DNA of 64,000 nt from Clostridiales bacterium UBA6330 (GTDB lineage Bacteria; Bacillota; Clostridia; Oscillospirales; CAG-272). Of this stretch, positions 2,098-19,759 are shown piece by piece; the stretch's first letter is position 1; each line of letters starts with the position of its first letter. The notes beneath the pieces are model-generated. The model saw only the letters and a list, made by a program, of their open reading frames with translations, was not told where the DNA came from and did no database searches. The position numbers were made by a program, and so were the translations under genes. Where the stretch lies: positions 20,182 to 84,181 of the forward strand of contig DJSQ01000212.1 of NCBI GenBank assembly GCA_002438075.1. Direction: 5' to 3'.

Positions 2098-2138
2098 ACC
2101 CGCTTCCATCGGGACTTTGATGGGAGCGGGTTCTTTTT
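2098..2138. terminator. Bidirectional intrinsic terminator between convergent genes
   Basis: 13-bp stem acccgcttccatc / gatgggagcgggt (one G-U pair), with an A-run on the left and tcttttt on the right. It sits between the Toprim gene stop (2093) and the HTH gene stop (2137). Confidence 0.6.
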
Positions 2139-2440
2139 ATTGGTGCATTGCCTGTAGGACCTGCAAGGCGGCTTTCTTTTGTGCGGGTGTGAGGTCGACC
2201 CAGCTGTCAAACAGCTCCTTGAGGTCGGGGGTCAATTCCACAAGCGTTCCTTCGGCAAAGAATTGGGCGAGCGTGATGCCGAATGCCCCGCAAATGGCTT
2301 CCAATGTCGGAATGGACGGGACGGTGTTCCGCTTGAAAATATTTGATTGTGGATTCCGAAAGACCGCTGCGGATGGCAAGACGGTAGGTCGTCATGCCGC
2401 TTTTTCTGAGCAATTGGTTCAGACGTTCGTTTGTGTCCAT
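2137..2440 (-). pseudogene. XRE-family helix-turn-helix regulator interrupted by a 1-nt frameshift (or a sequencing error)
   Basis: MDTNERLNQLLRKSGMTTYRLAIRSGLSESTI (frame of ORF 2207..2557, ATG at 2440 behind GGAGGA) continues in another frame as SNIFKRNTVPSIPTLEAICGAFGITLAQFF... (ORF 2137..2379). Joined, they give a canonical ~101-aa XRE HTH. The shift maps to the A-run ATC-AAA-TAT (plus-strand ttt at 2342-2344). Confidence 0.65.
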
Positions 2441-2513
2441 GATGTCCTCCTGTCCTTTTGTTTCCGAGTATGATGCAATCCAAAAAATAAAACGGGAAAA
2501 TTCAAGAACCCCC

Positions 2514-2541
2514 TTGACATTTTCGCGCTTTGTGGTATAAT
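2514..2541 (+). promoter_or_regulatory. Sigma-A type promoter (TTGACA, 16 nt, TGgTATAAT)
   Basis: ttgaca at 2514-2519 and tataat at 2536-2541 with an extended -10 TG. No protein-coding ORF follows; a short hairpin-rich transcript does. Confidence 0.55.
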
Positions 2542-2547
2542 AGAGAC

Positions 2548-2640
2548 AGGGATGCACTGACGGCTGTCAGCGCCCTCCGTGGTTAAATAACCGCTCTCCG
2601 GACTTTGCCAGAGTTATAGAGGGCGGTTATTTCTTATTGT
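2548..2640 (+). ncRNA. Candidate ~90-nt small RNA (putative type I antitoxin)
   Basis: The predicted TSS is about 7 nt after the -10. There is a 5' hairpin (ctgac-ggct-gtcag, 2557-2570), then a single-stranded CCCTCCGT (2573-2580). A 14-bp terminator stem follows (2585-2598 / 2619-2632) with a T-rich tail to about 2640. The 3' part is antisense to the 3' end of the small ORF at 2627..2728. Confidence 0.4.
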
Positions 2641-2728
2641 TGTAATAGGTCTTGATGGTATAGACTGTGGTGAAAACACCGCAGACCGCACCCACAAGTT
2701 GAGCGATCAACTCGATGAGAGACATCAT
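2627..2728 (-). CDS. 33-aa hydrophobic peptide, candidate type I toxin
   Basis: Translates as MMSLIELIAQLVGAVCGVFTTVYTIKTYYNNKK: one hydrophobic helix plus a polar/Lys tail. A strong SD (GGAGGGAGG, 2738-2746) lies 9 nt upstream of the ATG. It is too short for the ORF track and was found by reading the minus strand. Confidence 0.45.
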   Translation of the reverse strand: MMSLIELIAQLVGAVCGVFTTVYTIKTYYNNKK

Positions 2729-2899
2729 GTACTATCACCTCCCTCCGTTGCTTATACGGAGAGAGTTTGTCAGAAATAATTTGTCGCGCTCTCTCCGTCA
2801 TGTCCAAATGTCCACTTAGGAGGGAGCTAACAGCCGCCGGCTTGGGAATCAGTATCCCACGCACCCCCGGCAGACGCGCTTGCGCTTGTCTGCCCCTAT

Positions 2900-2928
2900 A
2901 TTATAACACCGCCCGACAGCTTTGTCAA
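2900..2928 (-). promoter_or_regulatory. Consensus sigma-A promoter on the minus strand (TTGACA, 17 nt, TATAAT)
   Basis: The minus strand reads TTGACA-AAGCTGTCGGGCGGTGT-TATAAT (plus 2923-2928 and 2900-2905). It would give a 5' UTR of about 165 nt ahead of the 33-aa ORF. The -35 lies in the loop of a 10-bp inverted repeat (ataacaccgc / gcggtgttat). Confidence 0.55.
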
Positions 2929-2968
2929 GCGGTGTTATTTCTGTTTTGGAGAATTTCGCGCATTTTTT

Positions 2969-3454
2969 TCAGGACTTCCGCAGGCACTCCTCCACGCGGC
3001 TGAAGAACGCGGCTTTCTCCTCGGGGGAGAGAATAGCGTAAACCACATAATCGCCGTAAATACGGACCTCCGCATCGCGCAGCTTCGGGGTCTCGGTGGG
3101 AATATAGGAGTCGTAAAAGGTGCGGTTCTGCTCATAGGAGCGGGCGAGATAGTCACGCAGGAGGCGGGCGGCTTCCTCGGTGCCGATGTCCGAATGCAGA
3201 ATGCCGTATTCGTCGATGCGGTCGCCGCCCGTGGCAAGACGGACCGAGAGGGAATAGCCCGCCTGCGGGAGTGAGACGTACTCGGTCAGATAGTCGGCAT
3301 CGGCGGCGCGGAAGTCCTCCGAAAGGGAATCATCCGCGAGGTCCGCAAGCTCGGCGGCGGATAAATCATTCAGATAATTGCGCGGGGTCGCTTTCCCGCA
3401 TCCCGCCAAGGACAGGACAAAAAGCGCAAAAAGGAACGGCAGAAATCGTTTCAT
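2969..3454 (-). CDS. Lipoprotein of unknown function
   Basis: 161 aa. Signal peptide MKRFLPFLFALFVLSLAGC with lipobox LAGC. RBS GGAGG upstream. Confidence 0.7.
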   Translation of the reverse strand: MKRFLPFLFALFVLSLAGCGKATPRNYLNDLSAAELADLADDSLSEDFRAADADYLTEYVSLPQAGYSLSVRLATGGDRIDEYGILHSDIGTEEAARLLRDYLARSYEQNRTFYDSYIPTETPKLRDAEVRIYGDYVVYAILSPEEKAAFFSRVEECLRKS

Positions 3455-4216: not shown

Positions 4217-4609
4217 TCAGTCCTCCTCCCGAATGCCGCGAATACGCTTGCGCGTCAGCAGGACGATTGCAAAGGCAATGGCGTAAACCAGCGTGAAGAA
4301 TACGATTGCAAGCAGATTCTTCACCGCCGTGTGCCCGCCTGCGGGAAGCCACAGGAAAAGGAAAAACGCGAGCATACAGAACAGATAATGAAGCAGGAGC
4401 CGCGCCCAGCCCGCCAGCGCGGTGTGACGGTAGATTGTACCCGCCGCCGCGAGAAACAGTCCGCAGGGCAAAAGCAGGAGAAAGCGGGGGATTTCAATGC
4501 TTCCGTCCCCATTCCCCTCGGCAATCAGCCGCAGGAGCATCAGCCCAACGGCAAGCAGGGTGAACCACAGGCAGGTCCCCGAAAAAAGTCGTTTGATGAG
4601 TTGTTTCAT
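4217..4609 (-). CDS. Small integral membrane protein (about 4 TM segments), function unknown
   Basis: 130 aa, strongly hydrophobic segments. RBS GAGGAG upstream. 18 nt upstream of the SGNH gene (likely co-transcribed). Confidence 0.6.
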   Translation of the reverse strand: MKQLIKRLFSGTCLWFTLLAVGLMLLRLIAEGNGDGSIEIPRFLLLLPCGLFLAAAGTIYRHTALAGWARLLLHYLFCMLAFFLFLWLPAGGHTAVKNLLAIVFFTLVYAIAFAIVLLTRKRIRGIREED

Positions 4610-4647
4610 ATCGGTCGGCTCCTCAAAAATAAGATTCCCACCTTATC

Positions 4648-4676
4648 ATGATACTATACATTCGGTGACTTTGCAA
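4648..4676 (-). promoter_or_regulatory. Possible promoter for the minus-strand membrane protein/SGNH unit
   Basis: The minus strand reads TTGCAA-17 nt-TATCAT (plus 4671-4676 and 4648-4653). Confidence 0.35.
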
Positions 4677-4757
4677 GTGGTTTGGCAAAAAATTTACAAA
4701 AGCAGAGCCCGAAAACGAAAAACTTGCATAAAAAATGATTTTTATACATTTTTACTG

Positions 4758-4785
4758 TTGACTTTTCTGTTTTTTGCGGTATAAT
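4758..4785 (+). promoter_or_regulatory. Promoter upstream of nusB (TTGACT, 16 nt, TATAAT)
   Basis: ttgact at 4758-4763 and tataat at 4780-4785, about 70 nt upstream of the nusB start. Confidence 0.5.
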
Positions 4786-4855
4786 ATAAGGTATACTATA
4801 GAATGGGATACTGTGGCTGACGGCGCGGTGTCCGCAAGGAAAGGATCATTCCAAA

Positions 4856-17620: not shown

Positions 17621-17649
17621 TTGACATTTTTCGTCTGATGTGGTATAAT
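17621..17649 (+). promoter_or_regulatory. Promoter (TTGACA, 17 nt, TGgTATAAT)
   Basis: ttgaca at 17621-17626 and tataat at 17644-17649 with an extended -10 TG, 45 nt upstream of the 17695 start. Confidence 0.5.
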
Positions 17650-19730: not shown

Positions 19731-19759
19731 TTGACAAATCCACTTCTTCGTATTATAAT
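19731..19759 (+). promoter_or_regulatory. Promoter of the giant lipoprotein gene (TTGACA, 17 nt, TATAAT)
   Basis: ttgaca at 19731-19736 and tataat at 19754-19759. A second TGgTATAAT lies at 19763-19771. This leaves a 5' UTR of about 140-150 nt. Confidence 0.5.

Follow-up and report, generated by a model that had tools for sequence, protein, structure and literature searches.

Does a stretch of about 470 bp in an uncultured gut Clostridiales genome encode a toxin-antitoxin (TA) system of type I? Such systems are hard to detect by homology, and the uncultured gut Clostridia are almost unexplored for them. The window analysed here is the whole 64,000-nucleotide (nt) stretch of contig DJSQ01000212.1 from Clostridiales bacterium UBA6330, in which an earlier note had described a candidate type I pair, a hydrophobic 33-residue peptide on the minus strand and a convergent small RNA on the plus strand. 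We find that the locus (2480-2935; Table 1) is a self-contained cassette of ~470 bp, which runs from the -35 box of the toxin promoter through a terminator, T2, and which probably represents a new, previously undescribed family of type I TA-like modules. Three results strengthen the type I-like reading: conservation of the unit in unrelated contexts, covariation in the mRNA, and substitutions that follow a coding pattern. We regard the cassette as a credible new type I TA family whose putative function is read from its sequence.

The basic components proposed by the earlier note are present. The minus-strand open reading frame (ORF) at 2627-2728 encodes MMSLIELIAQLVGAVCGVFTTVYTIKTYYNNKK, a hydrophobic peptide of 33 amino acids (aa) with a Lys-rich C-terminus, and lies behind a strong Shine-Dalgarno (SD) sequence, GGAGGGAGG, at 2738-2746, 9 nt upstream of the ATG. 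Both promoters match the sigma-70 consensus at 12 of 12 positions, and perfect TTGACA-N16-18-TATAAT sites occur four times in the 64 kb against an expectation of 0.01. Judged from the position of the -10 box, the toxin mRNA would start near 2893. The plus-strand promoter would give a candidate antitoxin RNA of ~93 nt, its ends placed from the promoter and terminator; this RNA has no ORF (ATG CAC TGA at 2552) and carries CCCTCCGT at 2573-2580 of the plus strand, as located by a repeat search. Judged from sequence, the antisense RNA, complementary to the toxin mRNA, is encoded by a gene of its own that has a dedicated promoter and terminator, as in type I systems generally, and this arrangement is conserved in all of the loci described below.

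To place the cassette among its relatives we relied on an exhaustive phmmer search of 1.84 billion representative proteins clustered at 50% identity, which returned two other clusters only. One, P0004, is a 33-aa protein 88% identical to the window peptide (loci L004-L006), and the other, P0006 (locus L003), was mis-called at 76 aa; its C-terminal 34 aa, MMDVIDLVCQLIGVVCRVLSATFSIKTYYKNKKK, show 55% identity. On these other metagenome contigs the whole cassette recurs end to end in three further sequence types, L004, L005/L006 and L003, each carrying the toxin promoter, leader elements, ORF, hairpin, antisense promoter and downstream hairpin; the -10 box of the small-RNA promoter in L003 reads TATACT. 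The earlier note had suggested looking for the peptide and the small RNA in related genomes, and both prove to be conserved together with the entire cassette. Since the listed features are also present in three other sequence types, they are not due to chance. Homology ends at the edges of the cassette, and the flanks are unrelated: the neighbours are NFACT in L004 and an acetyltransferase in L003, and the flanking genes of these two loci have no counterpart in the window.

The insertion site can be read from the other side as well. Syntenic contigs, in which the DUF4358 lipoprotein is 84-87% identical, keep the order xseA-tsaB-nusB ... lipase-lipoprotein ... XRE-rnmV-uppP, and none of them carries the cassette. 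The earlier note had taken a decayed XRE regulator gene beside the pair as consistent with an accessory or prophage-remnant patch. This gene is instead a core syntenic gene, intact in those contigs (101-102 aa), with 101-aa orthologues in L010 and L011, and the window copy (XRE/HTH, 2137-2441, minus strand) is ~92% identical to the L010 gene save for a 2-nt frameshift deletion near 2345. Homology to L010 resumes only ~20 nt ahead of the XRE start codon, so the spacer between the lipoprotein and XRE genes, with the palindromic promoter region that L010 has there, seems to have given way to the cassette. On this comparison it is clearly the cassette itself that is the insertion, and it behaves as an accessory, mobile unit.

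Is the peptide itself maintained by selection? Between the window and L003, 24 of the 33 codons differ, nine of them synonymously, and the nucleotide differences at codon positions 1, 2 and 3 number 12, 5 and 18. Frame, double ATG, stop, hydrophobic core and Lys tail are all retained down to 55% identity. Given this codon-position bias and these retained features, the substitution pattern indicates that the ORF is under selection at the protein level, in addition to selection at the RNA level. The peptide is hydrophobic enough for a transmembrane helix, with a Kyte-Doolittle mean over 19 aa of 1.95 in the window and 1.87-1.95 across lineages, and is 33-34 aa long in every lineage; small (<60 aa) hydrophobic membrane-helix peptides of this kind, here with a Lys-rich C-terminus, are what type I systems generally encode.

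The RNA-level constraint is seen most directly in the predicted structure of the full-length mRNA (~415 nt). The RNAalifold consensus contains 117 pairs, with 94.8% of cells paired, and is made up of a 5'-terminal hairpin (P1), a long-distance helix, an SD hairpin, two covarying hairpins within the ORF, the terminators T1 and T2, and a helix over the start codon. P1, the long-distance helix, the SD hairpin, T1 and T2 are recovered independently by RNAalifold. Twelve pairs are compensatory; shuffles give 2.7 +/- 1.4, with none of the 500 attaining 12, and sliding the partners yields 0-3. The alignment holds only three or four independent sequence types and hence few evolutionary events. Nine of the compensatory pairs fall in helices 6-8, in the ORF region, and the SD hairpin (helix 5, CUCUCUCCGU with ACGGAGGGAG) shows one compensatory and two one-sided changes.

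The long-distance helix of 29 bp joins mRNA nt 25-33 and 56-75 (2861-2869 and 2819-2838) to 2547-2555 and 2559-2578 in the 3' untranslated region (UTR). The same helix appears in independent full-length minimum free energy folds of all four lineages (the window and the three further sequence types), with duplex energies of -45 to -55 kcal/mol and z values of -5.6 to -8.7, which none of 1000 shuffles reaches. Two of its columns are compensatory, one of them reading U-A, A-U and G-C over three lineages and the other A-U and G-C. Its non-Watson-Crick pairs on the toxin strand are G.U (3-4 per sequence), with no A.C. Since the remaining mismatches are G.U and never A.C, they point to RNA pairing on the toxin strand and not to a repeat at the DNA level. 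Terminal repeats of the miniature inverted-repeat transposable element type (2547-2578 / 2819-2869) were considered for the two arms and rejected, as homology reaches past both arms to the promoters and T2 and the mismatches are G.U only. A repeat search had picked up part of the helix as an 18-nt inverted repeat, 89% complementary (2561-2578 / 2819-2836), together with a 17-nt direct repeat, 82% identical, between 2564-2580 and the SD region at 2732-2748; the earlier note had used neither. Within the 5' arm, at 2843-2859 (minus strand), a 19-nt alignment insertion that carries a small hairpin, GGGAUACUGAUUCCC, is found in the window only and is absent in all relatives.

How, then, is translation controlled? 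The earlier note had proposed occlusion of the ribosome-binding site by an 8-nt SD complement in the leader and by an adjacent 10-bp hairpin. The complement is there (GGAGGGAG at 2819-2826 of the plus strand, which is CUCCCUCC in the mRNA), and so is the perfect inverted repeat, although its arms lie at 2756-2765 and 2789-2798 and not, for the second arm, at 2790-2799. The SD is indeed hidden, but its main partner is the adjacent CUCUCUCCGU (element C), the 3' arm of that 10-bp repeat, with a pairing probability of 0.79-0.89 in full-length folds of all four lineages, while CUCCCUCC belongs to the 29-bp helix between the 5' and 3' UTRs. The SD mimic ACGGAGAGAG (element B) pairs with element C only in folds where CUCCCUCC holds the SD, as CUCCCUCC does in the nascent leader of the window and L004 types. 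The start region (2723-2738) pairs with 2642-2657, which covers ORF codons 24-29, so hiding the start codons. In partition-function models of five states (full-length, T1-ended, small-RNA-bound, 5'-truncated and nascent) the probability that the SD is unpaired never exceeds 0.11, and the SD is mostly held by element C. A switch in which small-RNA binding frees CUCCCUCC to re-lock or unlock the SD was accordingly rejected, the SD being paired in all modelled states. A translatable form might arise by mRNA processing as in hok, tisB, dinQ or aapA1, which is a guess from analogy. In the literature, type I toxin mRNAs are marked by an SD paired with an anti-SD, by a 5' stem-loop, by a terminator and by a long-distance 5'-3' interaction (PMC8594479). 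All of these are present in the cassette, with the sequestered SD, the 5' stem-loop and the 5'-3' interaction as predicted by the models.

We then asked where the two transcripts would end. The earlier note had described an ORF-less plus-strand RNA of about 90 nt whose terminator hairpin, 2585-2632, overlaps the 3' end of the toxin gene. The predicted gene for this RNA and its hairpin are present, but the overlap is probably the whole small RNA, with the mRNA ending at T2. The arms of T1 are 14 nt each and 93% complementary. In the window T1 folds on the plus strand at a predicted -22 kcal/mol, and 7 of the 10 nt behind it are U, compared with -16 kcal/mol on the minus strand and 1 U in the tail; in all four lineages the tail holds 7-8 U per 10 nt on the small-RNA strand against 0-3 U on the toxin strand. 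The single mismatch in its stem is G.U on the plus strand and A.C on the minus strand in four of five sequences. T2 shows the reverse polarity: in each of the four lineages, 5-9 of the 10 nt behind its hairpin are U when read on the toxin strand. It is also helix 10 of the RNAalifold consensus, and in L003, at -22 kcal/mol, it is a textbook terminator. A U-tail is thus present for T2 on the toxin strand only and for T1 on the small-RNA strand only. It is most likely, on these tails, that the hairpin at 2585-2632 terminates the small RNA only and that the mRNA reads through to T2. Because the T1 U-tail is one-sided and a conserved toxin-strand T2 follows, the antisense overlap would probably comprise the entire small RNA.

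Table 1. Coordinates of the predicted features of the cassette (positions in the 64-kb window).
Feature	Position	Strand	Remarks
Toxin-mRNA promoter, TTGACA-17-TATAAT, TG extension	2900-2928	minus	12/12 consensus; conserved in L003-L006
5'-terminal hairpin P1 (GCAGAC...GUCUGC)	2870-2893	minus	helix 1; ~92% of cells paired; one-sided changes only
Long-distance helix, 5' arm	2819-2869 (segments 2861-2869, 2819-2838)	minus	second segment holds the anti-SD-like CUCCCUCC
Element B, ACGGAGAGAG, SD mimic	2789-2798	minus	perfectly complementary to element C; invariant in all loci
Element C, CUCUCUCCGU, proximal anti-SD	2756-2765	minus	forms the predicted SD-sequestering hairpin
Shine-Dalgarno region, ACGGAGGGAGG	2738-2748	minus	P(unpaired) <=0.11 in every modelled state
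Peptide ORF, 33 aa	2627-2728	minus	homologues at 88% and 55% identity; holds two covarying hairpins
T1, small-RNA intrinsic terminator	2585-2641 (stem 2585-2632)	plus	U-tract encoded opposite the Lys codons of the peptide
Candidate antitoxin small RNA, ~93 nt	2548-2640	plus	SL1 (2554-2573), single-stranded CCCUCC (2573-2578), T1
Long-distance helix, 3' arm, in the mRNA 3' UTR	2547-2578	minus	complements the small RNA's 5' third exactly
Small-RNA promoter, TTGACA-16-TATAAT, TG extension	2514-2541	plus	12/12 consensus; conserved in all loci
T2, toxin-strand intrinsic terminator	2480-2527 (stem 2493-2527, U-tract 2480-2492)	minus	overlap with the small-RNA promoter at its -35 box and spacer

What would such a module do? 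In the mechanism that we favour, the minus strand would give an mRNA of ~415 nt, from ~2893 to ~2480, for the 33-aa single-helix membrane peptide, which is presumably toxic. This mRNA would be stable and translationally silent by design, through its 5' hairpin, the 29-bp closing helix, the SD hairpin and the start-codon helix. The plus strand would give the ~93-nt candidate antitoxin RNA, antisense to the mRNA and lying wholly within its 3' UTR and last codons. First contact would most likely be made between the complementary loops of T1 and would then grow into a perfect duplex of ~93 bp, so that the 5' arm is pushed out of the long-distance helix. Now double-stranded, the 3' UTR would be subject to RNase III-type cleavage, and the mRNA, having lost its protective closed structure, would decay. 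The long 3' duplex would in this way both trigger decay and open the closed mRNA. We favour this mechanism because the feature that is conserved is the small RNA's perfect complementarity in cis to the 3' UTR, the closing helix's 3' arm included. The decay step is drawn by analogy from bsrG/SR4, txpA/RatA and the C. difficile systems, since antitoxins that overlap at the 3' end are known to promote mRNA decay (PMC3834814, PMC6563280).

The known systems that most resemble this arrangement are those just named. Like the cassette, bsrG/SR4 and txpA/RatA of Bacillus subtilis and the CD2517.1/RCd8-type systems of C. difficile are found in Firmicutes and encode a small hydrophobic toxin, have a convergent antitoxin on the 3' side with a long perfect overlap, and hold the SD in a hairpin; contact between terminator loops followed by decay of the duplex is also what would be expected here (PMC3834814, PMC6563280). 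The C. difficile toxins share the Lys-rich tail of the window peptide, and those encoded by prophages, with their hydrophobic N-terminus and Lys-rich sequence, are similar in composition, although no homology to them was detected in a tblastn search of phage and plasmid records. In contrast to all three systems, the cassette has no sequence similarity to their toxins or RNAs, its small RNA apparently lies wholly inside the mRNA 3' UTR, the target of that RNA also serves as the 3' arm in the helix that closes the mRNA 5'-3', and the toxin-strand terminator overlaps the antitoxin promoter.

Other likenesses are more limited. The par system of pAD1 (fst RNA I/RNA II) and SprA1/SprA1AS of S. aureus have, like the cassette, a 33-aa toxin and promoters that converge around a terminator hairpin, as well as a 5' structure that protects the mRNA end and an intramolecular stem that hides the SD (PMC7472228, PMC6393315). 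Their second complementarity, over the SD, has a strong predicted counterpart among the cassette lineages only in this window. Unlike in par and SprA1, the hairpin in the cassette is not bidirectional as judged from its U-tails, and in the relatives the modelled contact with the translation-initiation region does not rise above shuffles. The PXXXG motif of the transmembrane domain is essential in Fst (PMC7472228); the cassette peptide differs from Fst and Ldr in lacking it, having AQLVG, SQLVG or CQLIG ([A/S/C]-Q-L-[V/I]-G) in its place, and has no match to the Fst family of Pfam. The full-length mRNAs of the Gram-negative systems hok/sok and AapA1/IsoA1 are, as is predicted for the cassette mRNA, closed by a 5'-3' interaction and translationally inert. 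Their antisense RNAs target the 5' leader or translation-initiation region of the processed mRNA, whereas that of the cassette would be aimed at the closing helix's own 3' arm. Neither system is homologous to the cassette and the host phylum differs; the 5'-3' fold-back is an analogous feature only.

T1TAdb places the antitoxins of Gram-positive systems on the 3' side with a partial overlap, and fully embedded ones are known only in Gram-negative families. As modelled, the cassette would have an antitoxin that is both on the 3' side and fully embedded, together with a closing helix like that of hok, the 3' arm of which the antisense RNA targets. A bolder reading is possible, which we put forward tentatively: the antitoxin RNA may mimic in its sequence the 5' closing arm of the toxin mRNA, so that strand displacement would open a hok-like 5'-3' closed loop from the 3' side, with the two genes interlocked by placing the toxin-strand terminator on the antitoxin promoter. 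If so, this wiring would be undescribed among the 24 catalogued type I TA families, and this would be the first Gram-positive antitoxin fully embedded in a toxin 3' UTR. The cassette offers a compact and comparatively well-defined example, in which a closing helix between the 5' and 3' UTRs is backed by covariation, beyond a single fold prediction; it would present a Gram-positive toxin mRNA with a closing helix and an antisense RNA aimed at one arm of that helix. If borne out, it would bring to the type I repertoire a family and a regulatory layout that are both new, and would provide a portable 470-bp kill-and-rescue module for anaerobe genetics.

Three other accounts of the locus have to be weighed against the type I reading with decay through a 3' duplex. 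The locus might work as par and SprA1/SprA2 do (PMC7472228, PMC6393315), in which case the mRNA would end at a shared bidirectional hairpin (2585-2632), the small RNA would overlap it at that hairpin only, and the single-stranded CCCUCCGU would block the SD in trans. The earlier note had likewise suggested a trans anti-SD contact through CCCTCCGT, and in the window this contact is strong: the 5' part of the small RNA pairs with the translation-initiation region at -36.3 kcal/mol, compared with -19.2 +/- 3.7 kcal/mol for shuffles (0 of 500 reach it), and the 82%-identical direct repeat at 2564-2580 / 2732-2748 fits such pairing. Elsewhere the duplex does not exceed shuffles, the fraction being 0.07-0.10 in L004-L006 and 0.52 in L003. 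Because it is strong in the window only and ordinary in these relatives, the modelled trans pairing of the small RNA with the SD is unlikely to be the conserved mechanism. It also speaks for this account that every small RNA carries GUCAGCGCCCUCC unchanged, but the part that its complement plays in the long-distance helix accounts for that just as well, and its covarying column (U-A, A-U, G-C) follows the partner in the 5' UTR, not the SD region. As for the shared hairpin, the 3 U in the toxin-strand tail of T1 in L005 would make partial termination possible there; across the lineages that tail has 0-3 U per 10 nt and is followed by the conserved T2. We therefore consider a par-like arrangement unlikely.

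Much the same view can be taken of the suggestion that the peptide is a small non-toxic membrane protein, for example a regulator or accessory subunit, tuned by a structured leader and a cis-antisense RNA with no addiction involved. The evidence throughout concerns gene structure and not toxicity, the composition of the peptide is common to many small membrane proteins, and it has no homology to any validated toxin. An autonomous cassette that sits in unrelated loci and is missing from close relatives nevertheless fits selfish TA modules better, and two perfect strong promoters combined with several layers of translational silencing are what is typically seen for a product whose free synthesis would do harm; we judge a non-toxic role rather unlikely. 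Far less probable is that the ORF is incidental and that the locus encodes only structured non-coding RNAs, one of ~415 nt and its antisense partner. The RNA elements are more conserved (invariant blocks of 13-17 nt) than the peptide (55% aa identity), and the hairpins within the ORF covary. Yet a strong, correctly spaced SD, the double ATG, the frame and the stop are found in every lineage, the length is 33-34 aa throughout, the fewest changes fall at codon position 2 (5, with 12 and 18 at the others), and the peptide stays hydrophobic.

Several points nonetheless weigh against identifying the cassette as a type I TA module. The source organism is an uncultured metagenome-assembled genome, and the covariation comes from three or four sequence types, so that few independent events underlie it. 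No known toxin family matches the peptide and no Rfam antitoxin the RNA, and the family is extremely rare, with three protein clusters in total. Read-through at T1 is deduced solely from U-tail counts, and the models offer no state with an exposed SD from which the peptide would be made.

The rarity of the family was borne out in wider scans, some of which took as query an alignment led by the 76-aa mis-called P0006. An index of 5.8 billion protein clusters at 90% identity held no members beyond the three clusters, and two contig scans of 185,579 species-representative genomes were empty. Viral contigs gave two chance matches inside GC-rich phage genes and no match to the leader pattern, and JGI metagenomes gave only L009, which is the same contig as L004. 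A tblastn search of 50,697 phage and 72,556 plasmid records returned one chance match (E 0.06, in an Agrobacterium phage gene), and blastn likewise found nothing real in them. Against Pfam, NCBIfam, PADLOC and PHROGs the peptide gave only sub-threshold holin or transmembrane noise, with no Fst, Ldr or other toxin Pfam family at E<=1. There was no Rfam match at gathering thresholds over the 64-kb window, and at E<=10 within 2300-3100 only a chance terminator-like match to SpF11 (E 6.3); covariance models of known antitoxin RNAs (RatA, SR4-like, Sok, RNAII/par, SprA1AS and others) gave no match. A literature search for the peptide strings found no paper, and a second copy of the cassette was not found in the window.

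Some further observations concern the relatives and the promoters. Just upstream of the cassette copy in L004, an inverted repeat of ~55 nt (1-60 versus 270-330) flanks an AT-rich core, taataaagtaaataagcaataagtaataagtaac, and could be a structured element or an assembly artefact. The assembly of sample ERZ27300198 holds both a window-type cassette (L001) and the 88%-identity variant (L005), which could mean two paralogues in one genome or two co-resident strains. A hairpin with 16-nt arms (2903-2945) spans the toxin promoter and is followed, in the plus-strand reading, by TTTCTGTTTTGG. It is present in the window and in L004-L006 and absent in L003, and it could terminate plus-strand read-through past T1, mirroring the position of T2 on the small-RNA promoter. 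The other two perfect TTGACA-N17-TATAAT promoters of the window lie at 17621-17649 and 19731-19759, both on the plus strand; the 17621 site looks like the promoter of the small RNA (TTGACATTTT...TGTGGTATAAT) yet precedes an ordinary membrane-protein ORF. Finally, the GC content falls to 0.32 at 4600-4800, in the intergenic region upstream of nusB, against ~0.55-0.65 around it.

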